DNA of 64,000 nucleotides, taken from assembly GCF_003018255.1 (NCBI RefSeq), contig NZ_CP027440.1; one strand, given 5' to 3'. The notes beneath the pieces were generated by a model that was not told the origin of the DNA, ran no database searches, and saw only the letters and a list, made by a program, of their open reading frames with translations. A program made the position numbers and the translations under genes. Of the stretch, positions 42,187 to 50,944 are shown one piece after another. Position 1 is the first letter of the stretch, and each line of letters begins with the position of its first letter. Source of the DNA: Escherichia coli (GTDB lineage: Bacteria; Pseudomonadota; Gammaproteobacteria; Enterobacterales; Enterobacteriaceae).

Positions 42187-42245
42187 TTAGTGGCCGGATG
42201 TGCTTAATCCGGCCAACGAAAACCGTATCAACCGAAGTTTCAATT

Positions 42246-43034
42246 TCAGGATACTTCTTGCTCGGCAACCACCAGTTCAACATTCTCTTCACTTAACAAC
42301 TGGCAGAAAGAATTGGGAGGCGGGGCATCAGTAAAAAAAGCCCTGACATTCCGTGCATTGCCAATTGAAACGGCAGCAGACGCGGTAAACTTCGTATGAT
42401 CGGCCACTAACAATGTATTCCGCGCATGTTTAATCATCGTTCTCGCGACTAACGCTTCATTGACATCAAATTCCAGTAGGGTGCCGTCATGTTCAATGGC
42501 ACCTATACTGGTGATTAAATAATCTGCGCGGAAGCCTTCAATAAAATCCACGGCTCCTGGGCCGATAATCCCACCGTTATGAGCGCGTAAAGTGCCTCCC
42601 GGCACCATCACTTCAATATCCTGATTCTTATAAAGAATCTGTGCCACACGCAGGCTATTAGTGATAATGCGTAAATCACGCCGGTTGAGTAATGCCCTGG
42701 CAACGGCTTCTACGGTTGTACCGATGGTGATAAAGACGGTACAGCGTTCGGGAAGGTAATCGGCGACTGCCTCAGCGATCGCCCGTTTCTCGGCGGTGAG
42801 CGAAAGTTCCCGTTGCTCAAAAGCGGTATTCATGACGCTGGAGACGCGCCCGGCCCCTCCATGATGACGGGTGATCAAGCCCTGCTCACTGAGTTTTCGG
42901 ATATCCCGGCGCACGGTTTGCGTTGAAACATCCAGCAGTTGTGCCAGTTCTTCAATATTCATATAACCGCGTTCTGCGATTAGATGAACGAGTTGGTCAT
43001 GGCGTGGATTACCTGTCACTTCGATGATACTCAT
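42246..43034 (-). CDS. DeoR-family transcriptional regulator, YihW/CsqR-like (262 aa)
   Basis: ORF 42246..43034 minus; N-terminal HTH (MNIEELAQLLDVSTQTVRRDIRKL) plus sugar-phosphate-binding domain; adjacent to kinase/aldolase genes. Confidence 0.8.
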   Translation of the reverse strand: MSIIEVTGNPRHDQLVHLIAERGYMNIEELAQLLDVSTQTVRRDIRKLSEQGLITRHHGGAGRVSSVMNTAFEQRELSLTAEKRAIAEAVADYLPERCTVFITIGTTVEAVARALLNRRDLRIITNSLRVAQILYKNQDIEVMVPGGTLRAHNGGIIGPGAVDFIEGFRADYLITSIGAIEHDGTLLEFDVNEALVARTMIKHARNTLLVADHTKFTASAAVSIGNARNVRAFFTDAPPPNSFCQLLSEENVELVVAEQEVS

Positions 43035-43073
43035 GAATACTCCCTTGCCCCTCCTCGGTAGATGTTTACCATT

Positions 43074-43970
43074 TTACGCATAAAGTGACAAAAATGATTC
43101 GGTTTGCTCACGATTAGGAATGCCGGCCCGACCGCCAGGCTGGGTACATTTCATCGCGGCAACCGCACTGGCAAAACGAATAGCCTCTTTTGTTGGCATT
43201 TTTTCTGCCAACGCTACCGCGAGTGCGCCGTGAAAAACATCGCCTGCTCCAGTGGTATCAACCACATTGACAGAAAATGCCTCCTGTTGACACAAATGAC
43301 CATCTTCAATCCACAACGATCCTTCAGAACCCAGCGTAACATACACTTTACCTGCTGTTTGTGTCGTTGCCTGGAACAAACCTTCTTCAGGTGACTGCAG
43401 GCCAGTCATGCGTTTCAGCCCAGGTGTTGAGAACACGGCGTGATCGGCAAGCGCGACAAGTGGAGAAATATCCTGCGGTGTCATATCGGCGTCTAAAAGC
43501 GTTGTCACACCCGCAAGGCGCGCTAGCGAGAATGCTTTTTCAGTACCGCTATGCCAGCGAACATCGGCCAGAATCAGATCATAACGAGAGAAATCGATCG
43601 CTTCTAACCATTCGGCATCAGTACCGAGATCAGGACTTGGATAATTAACGATAATCCGTTCGCCATGCTGATCAACGAGGATCGCTGATTGCGACGAACG
43701 GGCGTTAGGATATCGGCGGCAAAATGCGGTATTGACGCCCCAACCCTCAAGTTCTGCAAGTAAGGTATTTCCACAACTGTCATCGCCGACGCGACCGATG
43801 AAATCAACCTCCACGCCAAGCTTTGCGATTGCAACAGCGGCTGTTGCTGCCGGGCCGCCACCAATCTCAAGATAATGATTTGCCTGATATTTCCCGCCGC
43901 CCTCCGGCAGAGTGGGCAAAGAATAAATCCTGTCCTGAACTGTGATACCCACGCATGCAATTCTGGTCAT
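43074..43970 (-). CDS. PfkB-family sugar kinase, YihV (sulfofructose kinase)-like
   Basis: ORF-track frame 43074..44021 minus; start probably at [13 protein letters not shown] (43970); PfkB signature [14 protein letters not shown]. Confidence 0.8.
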
Positions 43971-44142
43971 ATTTGTCTTGTCCTGTTTAATTTTGTCGTC
44001 TTTGGTCAATTTAAATGACACAAATGATCAAATTAGTGATGCGTGTCGTGTTTTTGAACATAAATTACAAATATGCTCAAAAACAGACGAAAACGAATTT
44101 TCAATTGTCATTATTTTGTCAATGTCAGACAGGAGAGTATTC
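43971..44142. promoter_or_regulatory. Divergent promoter/operator region between the kinase gene and the reductase-aldolase operon
   Basis: AT-rich intergenic DNA with reiterated tttgtc-containing motifs (ttttgtcgtcttt, ttttgtcaatgtc, atttgtcttgtcc), a pattern expected for DeoR-type operators; RBS aggagag before 44143. Confidence 0.4.
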
Positions 44143-45021
44143 ATGGCAACCATTGCATTTCTCGGGCTGGGGCAGATGGGTAGCCCAATGGCTAACAATC
44201 TATTGCAAAAAGGGCATTCATTGCAGGTATTTGATGTCAATGCACAGGCCGTCGATGTGCTAGTTACGCAGGGGGCCACTGCGGCACAAACCCCAGCGGA
44301 AGCAGCAGCAGGCGCTGAATTTATCATCACTATGCTTCCCAATGGTGACATTGTTCGACAGGTTCTGTTGGGGGAAAAAGGCGTCTGTGAGGCTGTTTCA
44401 TCTGACGCGTTATTGATTGATATGTCGACTATTCATCCCTTACAGACCGATGCATTAATACGGGAGTTACAAGAAAAAGGCATCAGTATGATGGACGCTC
44501 CCGTGGGCAGAACGTCCGTGAATGCGATTGATGGCACATTGCTGATTTTAGCGGGTGGCACTGATGAGCAGATTGCACGTGCACGCCCGATTCTCATGTG
44601 CATGGGTAATGAACTGGTCGAGGCTGGCGGCCCAGGAATGGGGATCCGCGTGAAGCTAATTAACAACTATATGAGCATTGCGCTTAATGCGCTGTCCTCC
44701 GAGGCCGCTGTGTTATGTGAGTCACTGGGATTAAATCTTGATGTCGCAATTAAGGTGATGAGTGGTACGGCAGCAGGGAAAGGACATTTTACGACCACCT
44801 GGCCTGGCAAAGTGCTGAAAGGCGATCTTTCACCCGCCTTCATGGTGGATCTGGCGTTGAAAGATCTGCGTATTGCAGTTGACGTCGCTCGGGAGACGGG
44901 GGCACCGCTCAATATGGGGATTGCAGCAGAAAGTTATTACGCCGCAGCAAGTCAAGACGGCAAAGGGCGGCAGGATTGGAGTGCCCTGCTAAATCAGGTT
45001 CGCCAGCAGGCTGGTCTTTAA
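44143..45021 (+). CDS. NAD(P)-dependent beta-hydroxyacid dehydrogenase family reductase, YihU (sulfolactaldehyde reductase)-like (292 aa)
   Basis: ORF-track frame 43942..45021; start placed at ATG 44143 after RBS; Rossmann motif [13 protein letters not shown]. Confidence 0.8.
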
Positions 45022-45045
45022 TTTTATCTATTAACAGGAGTTTCT

Positions 45046-45933
45046 ATGTCATCCCACTTCACCCCATTTACGCTGAAAGATATCTCCCGCCCAGGTGGTG
45101 GATTCGCCATGTTAGCTGTCGATCAGCGTGAGGCCATGCGCCTGATGTTTGCGGCAGCAGGGCAGCCAAAACCCATCGCCGACAGTGTACTCACCGATTT
45201 TAAAGTTGCCGCGACCCGAATCCTTTCTCCTTATGCTTCTGCCGTTCTGGCGGATAAACAATTTTGTCTTGAACAAATAGTCGAGCAGGGCGCTGTGGCT
45301 AATTCTTGCGGCCTGATTGTCGCTGCCGATCTTTTTATCCCAGGTAATGGCATCCCGGTTGATAGCGTTGAAATAGATATGTCCGTCGACCCGCATAAAG
45401 CCCGTGAAATGGGGGCTAAGGCAATGAAATTACTTGTACTCTGGCGTGAAGATGAACCCGCAGAGGAACGTCTGGCAATGGTTGATAAATTTGTTCGTCG
45501 CTGCCGTAGTGCCGGGCTGGTTAGCATTATTGAACCTGTGGTGCGTCCACCTCGTCGCGGTTGGGACTTTGATCGTGAAAGCGCCATTGTTGCCGCCGCC
45601 GCAGAGCTTGGTGGAACAGAGGCTGATCTTTACAAAGCCGAGATGCCATTAGGGGGCAAAGGCGATGAAAAAACCTTACTTGCCGCCTGTCAGCAACTTA
45701 ACGATCAGATGAAGATGCCGTGGGTAATTCTTTCTTCTGGCGTTGATGCCGATATTTTTGGCCGTGCAGTAAGTATTGCCATGAAAGGTGGTGCGTCGGG
45801 CTTCCTGGCTGGACGAGCGGTATGGGCGTCGGTTGTTGGTGCACAAGATCCACAAACCATGCTGCGCGATGTCTCCGTTCCACGCTTGCAACGGCTGGCT
45901 GAAATTGTCGATGAAGGTATCGCGCAACGCTAA
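45046..45933 (+). CDS. Class I aldolase of the LacD/YihT (sulfofructose-phosphate aldolase) family (295 aa)
   Basis: ORF 45046..45933; [13 protein letters not shown] motif region characteristic of YihT/LacD-like aldolases. Confidence 0.8.
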
Positions 45934-45965
45934 TCCCCTATGGATATCGATTCTGGAGAATAACA

Positions 45966-46976
45966 ATGGATAAAATTACCCAGGTTTTATTTTCAGATAT
46001 TGGGAAAGTCACCACTCAATATGTTGAAGTACCACACCAGCAACTTAAACCGCACGAAGTACGGATTGCGCCCGTGTTCTACGGGATATGCGGTTCGGAT
46101 CTGCATGTTCTGAAAGGCGGTCATCCGTTTGCCAAGCCGCCTGTCGTCCCCGGTCATGAAATTGCAGCGCGCGTTACGGAAGTGGGCAGCGACGTTAAAA
46201 ATGTACAGCCGGGCGATCATGTTGTGGTCGATCCCATCATGGCTTGCATGGAATGCCGAGCCTGCAAAGCAGGACGTTTTAATCTTTGTGAACCACCGCA
46301 GGTTGCTGGTTTTCGCGCACCGGGCTTTGCTCGCTCACAACACATTGTTCCTGCGCGTAATTGCCATGTCGCACCAGCCTCTTTACCGCTAAAAGTGTTG
46401 GCCTTTGCCGAACCGGCGGCTTGTGCTCGTCACTGCGTTAACCGAATGCCGAAAGCTTCTCTGGAAAGCGTACTGGTGATTGGTGCCGGAACGATAGGCT
46501 TATCCATCGTGCAGGCACTGCGCATTATGGGGGCAGGTAAGATTACCGTGATTGAACCTGACGCTGCCAAACGCGCGCTGGCGTTAAAGCTGGGCGCAGC
46601 AGAAGTTTGGGCACCAGGTGAGCTGGCCGCAGATGTGAGATTTACGGGGGCGATTGATGTCGTTGCAGCGCAGGCCACGCTTAACGATGCATGTACCCGT
46701 GTATATGCCGGAGGCACCGTCGTGTGCATGGGCGTACCAAGTGGGCCGCGTGAAATACCATTACCGATGATGCAACGTTTCGAGCGTGACTTGCTCAACT
46801 CTGGCATGTACATCCCTGAAGATTTCGATGCTGTTATCGAATGGCTGGCGGATGGGCGGTTTGATACCAGTGAACTGGTTACCGATTTATTTGCCATTGA
46901 GGATGCAGCGGCGGCATTCGAACGCGCGCAGCAAAATGACTCCATAAAGGTCATGCTGCAATTTGCGCCGGAATGA
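45966..46976 (+). CDS. Zinc-dependent medium-chain alcohol/polyol dehydrogenase (sorbitol/threonine dehydrogenase-like, 336 aa)
   Basis: ORF 45966..46976; catalytic Zn ligands (GICGSDLH, GHE) and structural Zn cysteines (CMECRACKAGRFNLC); Rossmann motif GAGTIG. Confidence 0.8.
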   Translation: MDKITQVLFSDIGKVTTQYVEVPHQQLKPHEVRIAPVFYGICGSDLHVLKGGHPFAKPPVVPGHEIAARVTEVGSDVKNVQPGDHVVVDPIMACMECRACKAGRFNLCEPPQVAGFRAPGFARSQHIVPARNCHVAPASLPLKVLAFAEPAACARHCVNRMPKASLESVLVIGAGTIGLSIVQALRIMGAGKITVIEPDAAKRALALKLGAAEVWAPGELAADVRFTGAIDVVAAQATLNDACTRVYAGGTVVCMGVPSGPREIPLPMMQRFERDLLNSGMYIPEDFDAVIEWLADGRFDTSELVTDLFAIEDAAAAFERAQQNDSIKVMLQFAPE

Positions 46977-47045
46977 TTTTCTAAATCTCTGTCTGGCGCT
47001 GCGTCACGTCAGCGCCACCCTACAACAATTAAAAAGGACACTGCG

Positions 47046-48479
47046 ATGAGTCAAATCACCAGTCCTGCAACTTATTCAATTAGTCGGCCACAGGACGTAA
47101 TTGATATTGTTAATAAGAACTCTGCAATCAACACCAGTATCGGCGTTATTTTTATTGCTTTGGGCGGCATATTGATTGATGCCTACCAGGTGGCGATGGT
47201 GGGGTTTGGTAATAAATACATTGCCGCTCAATTCGGCATTTCTCCGGGTCTTGCTGCGACCGTCAATGCGTCAGTATTAATCGCCGCGTTAATTGGCGGT
47301 TTATTAGCGAACCGAGTAATAAACCGCTTTGGGCAAAAGCGGGCATTTATTATTGGCATGGGGCTGTGCACCATCGGTGCTGCAGCGGTAGCTATTGCTC
47401 CCAGTATCTGGTGGGTGCTGGTGTGCCGCGTCATCATGGGCTTTGGTTTAGGCATCGACTTCCCTTTGGCAACTAATGCCGTGGCAGAGCTTCGTGGTTC
47501 AACGTCGAAGAAAACCGGAACGTCGGTCAACCTCTGGCAAATGGCCTGGTATGTTTCGACAACCGTTGTTTATTTGGTGCTTTTGCCGCTGCTTCTGTCG
47601 GGTATCGCTGAAGAACAATTGTGGCGTTACGGAATATTCATCGGAGCTATTTTTGCAGTCATCTTCATGATTTTGCGTTACTTCTTTATTGGTGAATCCG
47701 CAATGTGGGCCGCACGCGTTGGGCGTTACCAGGAAGCGTGCGACATTCTGGGAAAACGTTATGGTGTTCAGGCTCGCGTTGCGGCATCGGGTACAACAGA
47801 AGCGAAATTCTCGGAAAAAGCAGAGAATAAATACAGTGGTGGATATGGCATCTTATTTAATGATCGTTACCGCAAACGCACCATTCTTGGCTGTGTCGTG
47901 GCAACCATGCAGGCGTGGCAATATAACGCCGTAGGTGTTTATCTTCCTCTTACGTTGGCGGGAATAATAAGTGGCGGGCTTACTGGCGCGTTGACCGGTT
48001 CTGCCGTCGTGAATGCCCTTTGTGGGGTGACAGGTGGGATGATCGGCTCGTTTATTCTCCAACGACTGGGTACTCGCCGACAGTCGATGTATGGATTTGC
48101 TGTTGTGACCTTAGCATTGCTGTCGTTAGGCGCACTGGCAACGACTAATCCTTGGCTGTCTTTAGGGTTATTGGGATCAATTATTTTCTTCCATTCAGCG
48201 GGTCCTGGTGGGCTGGGCATGACCATTGCCACACTCTCTTATCCTCCCGCTATTCGCCCTACTGGGGTCGGATTTGCCCGCGCTATTATGCGCACAGGGG
48301 CAATTGCAGGACTCATTTTCTGGCCGATGCTGTGGGGTGCGTTGAAAACTGAAGCGTTTTACTGGTTGGCAATCGTGCCATTCCTGGGATTCCTAACCTG
48401 TGTATTGATTAATTGGGAACCACTGGGTGCAAATGTTGATGCTGAGGACGCAGAGGTTCTGGCTGAATTGAAGAAATAA
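47046..48479 (+). CDS. MFS transporter (477 aa)
   Basis: ORF 47046..48479; about 12 TM helices; RBS aaggac. Confidence 0.75.
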   Translation: MSQITSPATYSISRPQDVIDIVNKNSAINTSIGVIFIALGGILIDAYQVAMVGFGNKYIAAQFGISPGLAATVNASVLIAALIGGLLANRVINRFGQKRAFIIGMGLCTIGAAAVAIAPSIWWVLVCRVIMGFGLGIDFPLATNAVAELRGSTSKKTGTSVNLWQMAWYVSTTVVYLVLLPLLLSGIAEEQLWRYGIFIGAIFAVIFMILRYFFIGESAMWAARVGRYQEACDILGKRYGVQARVAASGTTEAKFSEKAENKYSGGYGILFNDRYRKRTILGCVVATMQAWQYNAVGVYLPLTLAGIISGGLTGALTGSAVVNALCGVTGGMIGSFILQRLGTRRQSMYGFAVVTLALLSLGALATTNPWLSLGLLGSIIFFHSAGPGGLGMTIATLSYPPAIRPTGVGFARAIMRTGAIAGLIFWPMLWGALKTEAFYWLAIVPFLGFLTCVLINWEPLGANVDAEDAEVLAELKK

Positions 48480-48480
48480 T

Positions 48481-48514
48481 TTAATGCGCATCGGCTTAAG
48501 CCGATGCGCATTAA
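48481..48514. repeat. Perfect 34-bp palindrome between the two transporter genes
   Basis: ttaatgcgcatcggcttaagccgatgcgcattaa read directly; no downstream T-tract. Confidence 0.6.
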
Positions 48515-48577
48515 TTCAAACTGCCCACGTTTAGTGGTTCGTATCCCAGATTTCTCGCCTACCAGGAGAGGAAAATT

Positions 48578-49927
48578 ATGTCTGAAAAGTTACCCGCACC
48601 GCGTGAAGGGCTTTCCGGTAAAGCCATGAGACGTGTCGTTATGGGCAGTTTCGCAGGCGCGTTAATGGAATGGTATGACTTCTTTATTTTTGGCACGGCA
48701 GCAGGACTGGTATTTGCACCGCTGTTTTATCCAGACAGCGATCCTTTTATAGGTCTTATAGCTTCCTTTGCGACCTTTGGTGTCGGTTTTCTGACTCGTC
48801 CTTTAGGGGGCATCGTCTTTGGTCATTTTGGCGATAAAATCGGGCGAAAAATAACACTTATCTGGACGCTGGCTATTGTCGGTTGCTCCACATTTTTGAT
48901 TGGTTTTATTCCGACGTATCAGGAAATTGGCATTTGGGCACCGCTTGTATTAATGGTGCTGCGTTTGATTCAGGGCTTTGGTCTTGGTGGCGAGTACGGT
49001 GGAGCGGCATTGATGACCATAGAATCAGCGCCCGAATCCCGACGCGGATTTTTAGGTTCACTCCCGCAAACGGCTGCGTCTGTGGGTATTATGCTGGCAA
49101 CCGGTATTTTTGCTCTCTGTAACCATTTTCTTACTTCGGAGCAGTTTCTCTCCTGGGGATGGCGCATTCCGTTTTGGCTTTCTGCGGTGATGTTGATCGT
49201 TGGGCTGTTTATCCGCCTACATACCGAAGAAACGCTGGATTTTCAAAAGCAAAAAACGACGAATAATAAAGAAAAGTCCGTTCCTCCGTTGATTGAATTA
49301 TTCAAAAAACATCCACGAAATATTTTATTGGCACTGGGTGCGAGGCTGGCGGAAAGTGTCTCCTCTAATATTATTAATGCCTTTGGTATTGTCTATATTT
49401 CCAGCCAATTAGCATTGTCGCGAGATATTCCCCTGACGGGTATGTTGATTGCCTCGGCGATCGGTATTTTCAGTTGTCCATTGGTTGGATGGTTATCAGA
49501 TCGTATAGGTCAAAAAAGTCTGTATTTGTCGGGAGCAGGATTTTGTGTCCTGTTCGCGTTTCCTTTCTTCTTATTATTGGATAGCAAAAGTACGCTCATC
49601 ATCTGGTGCAGTATGATCCTCGGCTACAACTTAGGTCCGACGATGATGTTTGCCGTGCAGCCAACACTTTTCACCCGCATGTTCGGTACCAAAGTACGAT
49701 ATACCGGCCTTTCTTTTGCTTATCAATTTTCCGCGATTCTTGGCGGACTAAGCCCCCTTATCGCCTCAAGTTTGCTGGCGCTAGGGGGAGGAAAACCGTG
49801 GTATGTCGCTCTGTTTTTATTTGCTGTCTCAGTTCTTTCCTTTGTTTGCGTCTGGCTGATTGAGCCGACCGATGAACAAGAAACCGCTTCTTACCGCTAC
49901 ATCAGGGAACAATCTCATGAAAACTGA
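48578..49927 (+). CDS. MFS transporter of the metabolite:H+ symporter (MHS, ProP/KgtP-like) type (449 aa)
   Basis: ORF 48578..49927; MHS-like N-terminal motifs (GALMEWYDFFIFG, GHFGDKIGRK). Confidence 0.75.
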   Translation: MSEKLPAPREGLSGKAMRRVVMGSFAGALMEWYDFFIFGTAAGLVFAPLFYPDSDPFIGLIASFATFGVGFLTRPLGGIVFGHFGDKIGRKITLIWTLAIVGCSTFLIGFIPTYQEIGIWAPLVLMVLRLIQGFGLGGEYGGAALMTIESAPESRRGFLGSLPQTAASVGIMLATGIFALCNHFLTSEQFLSWGWRIPFWLSAVMLIVGLFIRLHTEETLDFQKQKTTNNKEKSVPPLIELFKKHPRNILLALGARLAESVSSNIINAFGIVYISSQLALSRDIPLTGMLIASAIGIFSCPLVGWLSDRIGQKSLYLSGAGFCVLFAFPFFLLLDSKSTLIIWCSMILGYNLGPTMMFAVQPTLFTRMFGTKVRYTGLSFAYQFSAILGGLSPLIASSLLALGGGKPWYVALFLFAVSVLSFVCVWLIEPTDEQETASYRYIREQSHEN

Positions 49928-50804
49928 ACGAAAAAACGAGCATTACCTGGCGCTACAACAGGCGTTTGACGCGCCATGGCCTGGGCCTGTAGGAGAGTTA
50001 GTGATGCTGGAAAAAGGCAATATTCACCTGCAGATTTATCCGCATGATGGTGCCAGGATAACCTCGTTAAAGGCATTTGGTTCTGAAGTATTACGCCAAT
50101 GGCAGCCGCAGCGCAGAGCTTTTCAGTATGGCTGTTTCCCAATGGTGCCGTGGGCAGGGCGACTGGGGAATGCGACGCTGAATGCTGGTGGGCAATGTTA
50201 TTCTTTACCCGCCAATAAACCACCACATGCGTTGCATGGTATGGCTTGTTACTCAACGTGGGAAATCATCGACAAAACAGCAGATTCCCTGACTTTACGT
50301 ATGCCCCTGGCTTCACCGTGGCCCTGGCAAGGGGAAGTGATTCAGACTTTTTTGCTGGAGAACGATGCGCTGGTTTTGCAACTGGAAGTCCATTCATATG
50401 CCGATACATTCCCGGCCTCCGCAGGCTGGCATCCGTGGTTTGCGAAAAAGCTGACTCCGCAAAATACAGAATCGTTGCAGGTGCTTTTTGATGCGGACTG
50501 GCAAGAAGAAGCGGGTAGTGATGAACTGCCAACTGGAAATCGTATCTCTCCTCAAGTCGGTCCCTGGGATGACTGTTTTGGTTTTTATGACGGGGTGAAG
50601 GTTAAGTTACTGTGGCCTGGTAAACTCGCGATGACCATGACCTCTTCTGCAAACAGTCTGGTGGTATTTGATAAACAGCCCGATGCCACCTGTATTAACC
50701 CGCTGACTCAGGCACCTAACGCAATAAATCTAACGCCGGAATTTGTGACACCAGATAAGCCGCTGGTCATCGAAACTCGTTGGCAATTTACACCTGAATC
50801 TTAA
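49917..50804 (+). CDS. Aldose 1-epimerase (mutarotase)-family protein, YihR-like
   Basis: ORF-track frame 49860..50804; start placed at ATG 49917 (MKTERKNE) after an RBS, overlapping the upstream stop by 11 nt. Confidence 0.7.
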   Translation: MKTERKNEHYLALQQAFDAPWPGPVGELVMLEKGNIHLQIYPHDGARITSLKAFGSEVLRQWQPQRRAFQYGCFPMVPWAGRLGNATLNAGGQCYSLPANKPPHALHGMACYSTWEIIDKTADSLTLRMPLASPWPWQGEVIQTFLLENDALVLQLEVHSYADTFPASAGWHPWFAKKLTPQNTESLQVLFDADWQEEAGSDELPTGNRISPQVGPWDDCFGFYDGVKVKLLWPGKLAMTMTSSANSLVVFDKQPDATCINPLTQAPNAINLTPEFVTPDKPLVIETRWQFTPES

Positions 50805-50811
50805 CCATTCA

Positions 50812-50850
50812 TCTATTGCGAAAAAGACAGTGAAATTACTCTGCTTTTTC
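50812..50850 (+). terminator. Terminator hairpin after the cassette operon
   Basis: ttgcgaaaaagacagtgaaattactctgctttttcgcaa inverted repeat. Confidence 0.6.
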
Positions 50851-50944
50851 GCAATCAGCATCACAAGATTACCCTTATTGCCACATAGCCAAACCCATCC
50901 TTTCCCGCTACAGTTAATTTCTTGTGGCGCGAAAGGAGGCAAAA

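Follow-up and report, generated by a model that had tools for sequence, protein, structure and literature searches.

A conserved eight-gene cassette at the yihN-yihX locus of Escherichia coli and its proposed role as a sulfo-EMP variant with a dehydrogenase entry step

In Escherichia coli K-12, the interval between yihN and yihX is occupied by ompL-yihOPQRSTUV-csqR, which encode the Embden-Meyerhof-Parnas type of sulfoglycolysis (sulfo-EMP) for sulfoquinovose (SQ). Kaznadzey et al. (October 2025; PMC12608037) described a polymorphism of this site, in which a long yih cassette alternates with a short one (yihTUVW) of reversed orientation; the short form was found in strain Nissle 1917 and is enriched in pathogens. 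In Nissle 1917 the short-cassette genes showed no induction by SQ in RNA-seq or qRT-PCR, whereas the K-12 genes responded with a log2 fold change of at least 5, and the authors considered that the "truncated" cassette has probably ceased to serve SQ catabolism (PMC12608037). Their survey found no isomerase converting SQ into 6-deoxy-6-sulfofructose (SF) elsewhere in short-cassette genomes (PMC12608037). Here we analysed the same interval in a 64-kb stretch of E. coli DNA (64,000 nucleotides of contig NZ_CP027440.1, hereafter the window). With moderate confidence we propose that its cassette encodes a variant sulfo-EMP route, intact and self-contained, in which the entry step would be the NAD-dependent oxidation of a free reduced sulfosugar to SF.

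From the yihN stop (42186) to the yihX start (50945), the interval contains eight intact genes:

42246-43034, minus strand: DeoR-family repressor, orthologue of CsqR (YihW), 72% identical to K-12 CsqR, with Met25 conserved
43074-43970, minus strand: PfkB kinase, SF kinase of the YihV type, 67% identical to K-12 YihV
44143-45021, plus strand: beta-hydroxyacid dehydrogenase (beta-HAD), sulfolactaldehyde (SLA) reductase of the YihU type, 73% identical to YihU
45046-45933, plus strand: class I aldolase (LacD/DeoC fold), SF-1-phosphate (SFP) aldolase of the YihT type, 67% identical to YihT
45966-46976, plus strand: Zn-dependent medium-chain dehydrogenase of the polyol-dehydrogenase branch (Pfam ADH_N and ADH_zinc_N), here called Zn-ADH (Zn-dependent alcohol dehydrogenase)
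47046-48479, plus strand: transporter of the major facilitator superfamily (MFS), sugar-porter-like (Pfam Sugar_tr/MFS_1 on its orthologues), here MFS1
48578-49927, plus strand: second MFS transporter, probably of the metabolite:H+ symporter (MHS) family and ShiA-like (near, but below, the cutoffs of the NCBIfam symporter and ShiA models), here MFS2
49917-50804, plus strand: aldose-1-epimerase-fold protein (PF01263 over residues 29-212 only), with the RefSeq start and an 11-nt overlap with the MFS2 gene

The RefSeq annotation of strain ATCC 25922 has an identical set of eight coding sequences. The chromosomal gene order around the cassette is typA-yihL-yihM-yihN, cassette, yihX-yihY-dtd-fabY, and the flanking proteins (yihL-yihM-yihN and yihX-yihY-dtd-fabY) are 98-99% identical to those of K-12. 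The locus therefore shares with K-12 the same site, and it also has the orthologous repressor, kinase, aldolase and reductase, an operator-like element, and a layout in which a regulator/kinase unit diverges from an operon for the reductase, the aldolase and the upper pathway. It differs in its inverted orientation and in its upper part: Zn-ADH, an MHS-type and a sugar-porter-type MFS transporter and a divergent epimerase-fold protein are present, and there is no sulfoquinovosidase, SQ isomerase, YihR, porin or transporter of the YihO/YihP type (glycoside-pentoside-hexuronide family, GPH). In fact, tblastn with all K-12 yih proteins as queries gave no match to YihQ, YihS, YihO, YihP or OmpL in the window. 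No isomerase of the YihS (PF07221) or SqvD (PF02952) family was found in the window or in 12 orthologous loci, and no sulfoquinovosidase of the YihQ type (glycoside hydrolase family 31) in the window or the orthologous loci; the longest open reading frame (ORF) of the interval is 477 amino acids. An initial annotation, made from the sequence alone, had described these eight genes and their positions, a retained core of kinase, aldolase, reductase and DeoR regulator, the lack of a YihQ-sized ORF, YihS isomerase and porin, and the presence of a Zn-dependent dehydrogenase, two MFS transporters and a mutarotase-like protein instead; all of this was borne out.

Evidence for the chemistry comes from the four core proteins. 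The sulfonate- and phosphate-pocket residues of YihV, YihT and YihU have been defined by crystal structures (PMC8006165), and they are kept here. The kinase has the sulfonate triad K27-N109-R138 and the catalytic D244, as well as D13, S95 and D162; the aldolase has the Schiff-base K193 together with S226, S227, R253 and A26; and the reductase has R123, K171, N174 and S178. Moreover, the reductase scores 580 bits against the NCBIfam equivalog NF012005 (sulfolactaldehyde 3-reductase), for which the cutoff is 348. Judged from these residues and homologies, the four genes are a genuine sulfoglycolytic core, and the lower pathway, from SF through SFP to dihydroxyacetone phosphate (DHAP) and SLA and on to 2,3-dihydroxypropanesulfonate (DHPS), is very likely encoded.

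The regulation also appears to be inherited from the yih system. The relevant region is:

43971-44142, no strand assigned: divergent promoter/operator region, aligned with those of K-12, Citrobacter, Budvicia and Vibrio

Within this region lies a 29-nt element, ATAAATTACAAATATGCTCAAAAACAGAC, at 44060-44088, which is near-identical in the yihV/yihU intergenic region of K-12 and in Citrobacter and occurs as a single copy in the window. This element is probably the CsqR operator or a core promoter, inherited along with the kinase/reductase core. By its DeoR orthologue and the shared element in the yihU/yihV intergenic region, the locus is a predicted member of the CsqR regulon. Nissle YihW was reported to be 72% identical to K-12 YihW (PMC12608037), which agrees with our figure for the CsqR-like repressor. 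In electrophoretic mobility shift assays, it binds the yihU/V region, with cross-binding, and SQ releases it in part (PMC12608037); the shared element fits the published cross-binding of the K-12 and Nissle repressors.

Zn-ADH is the proposed entry enzyme of this cassette. It has the catalytic zinc ligands C42/H64/E65/E149, the structural zinc ligands C94/C97/C100/C108 and the Rossmann motif GAGTIG (G173-G178) with E197, of the NAD type; these zinc ligands and Rossmann residues are invariant or nearly so across 15 orthologues. It falls outside every characterised equivalog tried (YdjJ, IolM, Tdh, IdnD, GatD and HpsP among them): no curated equivalog is reached, and the best NCBIfam match, YdjJ, gives 165 bits against a cutoff of 376. 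Its AlphaFold model has a confidence (pLDDT) of 85, and the top Foldseek matches have TM scores of 0.84-0.90 at 24-28% identity. These structural neighbours are a putative dehydrogenase of Sinorhizobium, E. coli ECK1772 (which we take to be YdjJ), IdnD, a ketose reductase, RspB and L-arabinitol dehydrogenase, and further the (S)-DHPS dehydrogenase HpsP, sorbitol dehydrogenase and GatD. For several of them, the reaction is the oxidation of an anionic polyol at a secondary alcohol. The model and the Foldseek search place Zn-ADH in the polyol-dehydrogenase branch without discriminating the substrate, and the loop with the invariant R117 is of low confidence.

The four additional genes are linked to the core far beyond E. 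coli. Among the matches listed by a search of contigs with Zn-ADH, 9 of the 79 loci are orthologous and most of the others are generic Zn-ADHs of about 30% identity. In every inspected locus, orthologues of Zn-ADH (55-94% identity) share the locus with genes for a DeoR regulator, a PfkB kinase and an aldolase, for the two transporters MFS1 and MFS2 and for a beta-HAD reductase; the epimerase-like gene is usually part of the module and is missing in Streptomyces. The loci are those of Citrobacter, where the module occupies the yihN-yihX site as in E. coli, of Klebsiella oxytoca, where it lies elsewhere, and of Budvicia, Vibrio rhodolitus, Sutterella, Propionivibrio, Rhodopseudomonas palustris BisB18, Pleomorphomonas, an alphaproteobacterial metagenome-assembled genome (MAG), Streptomyces and a Propionibacteriaceae MAG. 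Altogether the linkage is seen in at least 15 loci of four classes (Gamma-, Beta- and Alphaproteobacteria and Actinobacteria), and none of the inspected module loci has homologues of YihS, YihQ, YihO, YihP or OmpL. Across loci, identity to the window proteins is 66-74% for the aldolase, 64-76% for Zn-ADH, 64-78% for MFS1, 65-72% for MFS2 and 45-55% for the epimerase-like protein; the aldolase comparisons leave out the mis-framed ORF of Pleomorphomonas. For R. palustris and Propionivibrio, the module's aldolases reach 73-74% identity with the window enzyme. The kinase, reductase and regulator are of the YihV/YihU/CsqR type only in the gammaproteobacterial versions.

The genes around the module are of other kinds. 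No extra pathway enzymes stand beside it in Citrobacter, Sutterella, Propionivibrio and Budvicia; apart from housekeeping genes, we found only an autotransporter, efflux pumps and integrases there. Genes for an integrase or tyrosine recombinase abut the module in Budvicia (locus L009, 4482-5744) and in Propionivibrio (locus L014, 16961-18790). The module thus appears to be self-contained and mobile, because the flanking genes are unrelated among loci and integrases adjoin it in two of them; this suggests that it moves as a genomic islet. The Citrobacter cassette at the E. coli site shows a divergence like that of its flanks. In Citrobacter sp. R56 (locus L007, 15360-18098), a gene for a MisL/AIDA-type autotransporter adhesin lies between the epimerase-like gene and yihX; this insertion is missing from E. 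coli and from Citrobacter MGH106.

The Budvicia and Vibrio modules have a class II aldolase in place of the class I enzyme. The Vibrio protein matches PDB 8Q58/8Q57 at 352-366 bits and AgaY at 246 bits. The two structures belong to HpSqiA and YaSqiA, whose identity as class II SFP aldolases has been validated kinetically and through a complex with SFP (PMC10665668). Identity to YaSqiA is 78% for Budvicia and 56% for Vibrio, with Q51, D82, H83 and A257 kept. These aldolases lend independent support to SFP as an intermediate of the module. The hybrid sulfo-EMP1/2 clusters of Yersinia aldovae and Hafnia paralvei (PMC10665668) resemble our module in the csqR-yihV/yihU core, in the SqiA-type aldolase seen in Budvicia and Vibrio, and in their mix-and-match evolution. 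Unlike the module with its Zn-ADH block, however, they retain an SqvD-type SQ isomerase, YihQ, YihO/P and a porin; in Y. aldovae the csqR-yihV / yihU-sqiA core is followed by an epimerase, the SqvD-type isomerase, YihQ, YihP, YihO and a porin. The Enterobacterales thus combine one core with two alternative upper modules, one with an isomerase, a glycosidase, GPH transporters and a porin and the other with Zn-ADH, MFS1, MFS2 and the epimerase-like protein, because Y. aldovae shares the core but carries the isomerase/YihQ block.

In the pathway that we propose, MFS2 would import a free, non-glycosidic sulfonated sugar derivative and the NAD-dependent Zn-ADH would turn it into SF. The YihV-type kinase would then make SFP, which the YihT-type aldolase would split into DHAP, as the source of carbon and energy, and SLA; the YihU-type reductase would convert SLA into DHPS, and MFS1 would export it. 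The CsqR-like repressor would govern both divergent operons through the operator inherited along with the core. That Zn-ADH supplies SF in the isomerase's stead is probable in our judgement. Since aldose and ketose are isomers, a lone dehydrogenase could not stand in for the SQ isomerase without a two-step shuttle, and the simplest one-step route to SF would be the C2 oxidation of 6-deoxy-6-sulfo-D-glucitol or its mannitol epimer. This compound would be the likeliest import, though a sulfo-hexitol as the substrate is only a tentative suggestion. Moreover, the upper pathway would be redox-neutral, as the NADH made by Zn-ADH would be spent by the SLA reductase, and this would account for the presence of a reductase in every full module.

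Precedents for such a step exist among polyol dehydrogenases. L-gulonate 5-dehydrogenase, galactitol-1-phosphate dehydrogenase and HpsP all act on anionic polyols, and in known anionic-polyol routes a Zn-dependent medium-chain dehydrogenase/reductase (MDR) oxidises the secondary alcohol of the charged polyol to a ketose, which a PfkB kinase and a DHAP-forming aldolase then process. The enzymes of such routes, GatD, IdnD, the RspB type and the ydj system (YdjJ/YdjL with the kinase YdjH and the aldolase YdjI), are the nearest neighbours of Zn-ADH in sequence and structure. Their identity to it is only 24-28%; here a sulfonate, in place of a carboxylate or phosphate, would provide the charge, and the kinase, aldolase and reductase are sulfoglycolytic. 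HpsP, the (S)-DHPS dehydrogenase of Dinoroseobacter shibae (PDB 8WWD), is likewise a Zn-dependent MDR acting on a secondary alcohol of a sulfonated polyol, and it superimposes with a TM score of 0.83-0.85. However, it is about 26% identical to Zn-ADH, its substrate has three carbons, and it serves the racemisation and mineralisation of DHPS and not sulfoglycolysis.

The two transporters were assigned from their genomic contexts. MFS1 has as solved relatives only fungal phosphate transporters, with a weak match. MFS2 scores 407 bits against TIGR00883 (MHS symporter; cutoff 443) and 410 against the ShiA model (cutoff 538), and some of its orthologues carry the RefSeq name "MHS family MFS transporter". 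In Zn-ADH cluster variants without the reductase (Jejubacter, Streptomyces with a Zn-ADH of 43% identity, and Prauserella), MFS1 is missing and an MFS2-type protein is the sole transporter in all three. In two further clusters, of Deefgea piscis and of Azospirillum thermophilum, no importer candidate is present besides an MFS2 orthologue (56-61% identity). Their other genes are for a dehydratase (IlvD/Edd), an aldolase (HpcH), a mutarotase, a lactonase (SGL), a beta-HAD reductase, a short-chain dehydrogenase/reductase (SDR) and TauE. These are sulfoglycolytic Entner-Doudoroff (sulfo-ED) clusters, because the Deefgea SDR matches the SQ 1-dehydrogenase of Pseudomonas putida (PDB 9GWU) at 304 bits. 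Through them, gene context ties the MFS2 family to sulfosugars. From the retention of MFS2 and loss of MFS1 in the reductase-less variants, and from the MFS2 relatives in sulfo-ED clusters, we infer that MFS2 would be the importer of an anionic sulfosugar and MFS1 the exporter of DHPS. The reverse role of MFS2, as DHPS exporter, was considered and rejected on the same two observations.

The sulfo-ED clusters of the P. putida SQ1 type, including those of Deefgea and Azospirillum, share with our module the MHS-type transporter and a beta-HAD reductase, and the latter two also lack a sulfoquinovosidase, so that a free sulfosugar would be taken up in both cases. They differ in using an SDR SQ dehydrogenase, a lactonase, an IlvD/Edd dehydratase and an HpcH aldolase. 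Both clusters are compact and have a LacI regulator (D. piscis locus L092, 3017-11371; A. thermophilum locus L093, 2946-11443), and a beta-HAD reductase stands where an SLA dehydrogenase would be expected. In the reductase-less variants of Jejubacter calystegiae (locus L088, 11571-14329) and Streptomyces (locus L090, 2658-9004), an aldehyde dehydrogenase lies beside a protein of the enolase superfamily (MR_MLE), and TauE is additionally present in Streptomyces. Speculatively, SLA might there be oxidised to sulfolactate, from which the enolase-superfamily enzyme would eliminate sulfite, as a new type of sulfolactate sulfo-lyase.

The epimerase-like protein is 27% identical to YihR and 50-55% to its counterparts in modules of other phyla, and it scores 34 bits against the NCBIfam YihR model (cutoff 251). 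Its HG and GWHPWF motifs are retained. Where YihR has the catalytic Glu ("VEP"), it has an Asn, near residues 262-266 ("CINPL"), and the Asn is also found in the orthologues of Citrobacter, Vibrio, Sutterella, the alphaproteobacterial MAG and Propionivibrio; those of R. palustris, Budvicia and Pleomorphomonas keep the Glu. Given this exchange of Glu for Asn in an otherwise well conserved sequence, the protein is perhaps no classical mutarotase.

The initial annotation had also argued that the locus is a complete alternative catabolic cassette and not a remnant, and that its substrate enters as a free ketose or polyol, possibly sulfonated or 6-deoxy, rather than as a sulfoquinovoside. The linkage of the extra four genes to the core across four classes upholds the first point, and the gene complement and the intact sulfonate pockets support a free, sulfonated substrate; the unsulfonated 6-deoxy option is unlikely, since the sulfonate-binding residues are conserved. 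As a locus variant the arrangement is already known, and it is the same as the Nissle 1917 short cassette in site, orientation and distribution (PMC12608037). However, the published account treats a truncated form of four genes, and neither its text nor its supplement mentions Zn-ADH, the MFS genes or the epimerase-like gene, whereas the eight genes are one module kept across phyla. The "truncated" reading is thereby contradicted by the conservation of the whole module across classes. As the cassette lacks the isomerase, the sulfoquinovosidase and, by the published data, SQ induction, it should not be filed as "the SQ pathway", even if it very probably operates as that pathway's lower part does. 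Its pathway would be new in joining sulfo-EMP chemistry downstream to a dehydrogenase gateway and different transporters upstream. A module with a Zn-ADH gateway was not described in the sulfoglycolysis literature that we searched, including a review of January 2026, and among the sulfolactaldehyde literature of 2023-2026 only a sulfofucose ED pathway turned up, which is built on different enzymes.

Several points weigh against the oxidation of a reduced sulfosugar as the entry step. First, in the literature we found no sulfo-alditols (sulfoquinovitol), no SF or SQ reductase, no pathway named sulfo-EMP3, no Zn-ADH in sulfoglycolysis and no mention of the RefSeq accessions of the proteins. We also know of no natural source of a sulfo-hexitol. 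Second, Zn-ADH is at most 28% identical to any characterised enzyme, so that its substrate cannot be read from homology. Third, the conservation of a gene with the mutarotase fold points to a cyclic substrate (hemiacetal or hemiketal) and not an open-chain alditol; as a counterweight, PF01263 covers only the N-terminal two-thirds, the Glu is an Asn, and the gene is missing in Streptomyces. Fourth, the cargo of the MFS2 relatives from sulfo-ED clusters is presumably SQ, an aldose. Fifth, the alpha-, betaproteobacterial and actinobacterial kinases, reductases and regulators are 24-34% identical to those of the window, and these kinases and reductases, at 27-34% identity to YihV and YihU, lack the K-N-R triad of YihV and N174/S178 of YihU, so that outside the Gammaproteobacteria it is the shared aldolase, Zn-ADH and transporters that carry the sulfonate assignment.

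The best surviving alternative, which we nevertheless regard as unlikely, is that free SQ remains the substrate and that Zn-ADH, perhaps with the epimerase-like protein as a ring opener, replaces YihS through a redox shuttle. Either the aldehyde would be reduced and C2 then oxidised, or C2 oxidised and C1 then reduced, with no net use of NAD and with roughly constitutive expression. The swaps do look one-for-one with K-12 (Zn-ADH in place of the isomerase, the epimerase-like protein in place of YihR, the two MFS transporters in place of YihO/P), the MFS2 orthologues occur in SQ sulfo-ED clusters and the mutarotase fold is conserved. Moreover, Nissle YihW is partly freed from DNA by SQ, with weak binding at 37 °C, and the optical density of Nissle in SQ medium was similar to that of K-12 (PMC12608037). 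That medium was M9 with 5% LB, and the Nissle transcriptome in it showed fatty-acid, propionate, glyoxylate and gluconeogenic programmes (PMC12608037), so that the density reached hardly bears on SQ use; we discounted the claim of growth on SQ on account of the LB. The Nissle genes were also uninduced by SQ in both assays mentioned above, no medium-chain Zn-ADH is known as an aldose-ketose isomerase, and none of the several SQ isomerase families that have spread by horizontal gene transfer has joined the module.

It is still less probable that the module serves a carboxylated sugar, as in the scheme proposed for the ydj cluster, in which a hexonate is oxidised to a keto-uronate, phosphorylated and split into DHAP and tartronate semialdehyde, and reduction of the latter gives glycerate. 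The best NCBIfam and structural matches of Zn-ADH do include YdjJ, RspB and L-idonate 5-dehydrogenase, and MFS2 resembles ShiA, a carboxylate carrier. In the alphaproteobacterial and actinobacterial versions the kinases and reductases are generic, without the YihV/YihU sulfonate residues, and these reductases score equally well as tartronate semialdehyde reductase; the distant Prauserella cluster adjoins genes resembling fructuronate reductase and idonate dehydrogenase. However, the kinases and reductases of E. coli, Citrobacter, Klebsiella, Budvicia and Vibrio are YihV and YihU orthologues with every sulfonate contact kept, and the class II aldolases are close SqiA orthologues. The MFS2 orthologues and TauE connect the family to sulfonate clusters, and the CsqR-orthologous regulator answers to SQ in vitro (PMC12608037).

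Comparably improbable is a reductive use of Zn-ADH on an oxidised sulfosugar (6-deoxy-6-sulfo-glucosone or a 5-keto or 3-keto sulfohexose), or a stereoisomeric route through sulfotagatose or sulfosorbose from another sulfohexitol. The gene content demands a single redox step to a ketose, a mutarotase-fold helper for ring opening suits a cyclic keto-aldose, and YihT is related to LacD/tagatose-bisphosphate aldolase. No such natural compounds are known, however, and the kinase residues contacting the hydroxyls of SF (D13, S95 and D244) are the same as in YihV, which favours SF itself. Finally, a decaying, silent yih remnant (the "truncated short form yihTUVW") beside four unrelated genes by chance is very improbable: although the upper-pathway genes are missing, SQ elicits no transcriptional response and the Nissle repressor binds DNA more weakly (PMC12608037), in 1325 complete genomes all eight ORFs are undamaged and almost the same in sequence, the extra four are co-oriented, close together and partly overlapping, the same set is linked in four bacterial classes, and Citrobacter has the cassette at the same site with flank-like divergence.

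The distribution within E. coli was obtained by a pangenome comparison of the yihN-yihX interval over 5426 complete genomes, with at least 80% coverage counted as presence. The 8.76-kb interval is found in 1325 of them, full-length and at 98.8-99.9% identity; the remaining genomes align only with its first ~51 nt and last ~67 nt. The K-12-type ompL-yihU block (long cassette) is present in 3878. The two cassettes act as alternative alleles at one site, given these counts of 1325 short and 3878 long. Carriers of the short one make up about a quarter of E. coli, among them strains of the Nissle 1917 type and many extraintestinal pathogens (B2/ExPEC). The swapped segment is about 8.6 kb, as cassette-free E. 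coli genomes align up to about 42237 and again from about 50878. G+C content is lowest in the MFS2 gene (46.3%) and highest in the Zn-ADH gene (53.2%), the cassette as a whole having 49.5% and the window 50.8%; this unevenness among the genes is compatible with a mosaic origin. A few kb away from the cassette, the site downstream of fabY varies as well: the window and ATCC 25922 have a gene for an alpha/beta-hydrolase there (53894-54877, minus strand), where K-12 has yiiE/yiiF.

The plus-strand genes form a tight operon, as the initial annotation had described, with intergenic gaps of 24, 32, 69, 98 and -11 nt and AGGAG-like ribosome-binding sites at most genes. Three structures lie in or around it:

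42191-42215, plus strand: hairpin 3' of the yihN stop, folding energy -17.1 kcal/mol (z -3.6), inside the flank shared with K-12
48481-48514, no strand assigned: perfect palindrome with a 15-bp stem between the MFS1 and MFS2 genes, -25.9 kcal/mol (z -8.4)
50813-50858, plus strand: hairpin 3' of the last cassette gene, -17.7 kcal/mol (z -4.7)

The two boundary hairpins proposed in the initial annotation thus exist, but neither is trailed by a T-run, and neither was called in the terminator scan. The first is probably the yihN terminator, possibly bidirectional, and the second is a candidate operon terminator in spite of the missing T-run. The palindrome reads TTAATGCGCATCGGC TTAA GCCGATGCGCATTAA, occupies the 98-nt gap between MFS1 and MFS2 and appears in the terminator scan on the minus strand; it is far stronger than the boundary hairpins and does not figure in the initial annotation. 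It may split the expression of importer and exporter, or act as an attenuator, an mRNA stabiliser or a protein-binding site.

Sulfoglycolysis ranks among the major routes by which organic sulfur is turned over, and its DHPS supplies H2S producers in the gut. The prevailing view is that short-cassette E. coli simply lost the pathway. If the cassette is instead a working pathway for another sulfosugar, a quarter of E. coli, enriched in pathogens and including a marketed probiotic, would gain an unrecognised nutrient niche and an output of DHPS. A Zn-ADH-dependent entry balanced by SLA reduction would then join the isomerase, dehydrogenase, transaldolase, transketolase and oxygenase routes. It is possible, though we hold this only tentatively, that the Zn-ADH block is an unrecognised gateway of sulfoglycolysis for an undescribed natural organosulfonate such as 6-deoxy-6-sulfo-D-glucitol ([M-H]- ~245.03). 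The prediction is cheap to check, because this candidate can be obtained by borohydride reduction of SQ. The conserved module would then predict an overlooked natural sulfonated metabolite, whose consumers would also include Citrobacter, Klebsiella and scattered soil, gut and marine bacteria; by implication, some unrecognised organism would produce it, and the organosulfur cycle would have one more link.

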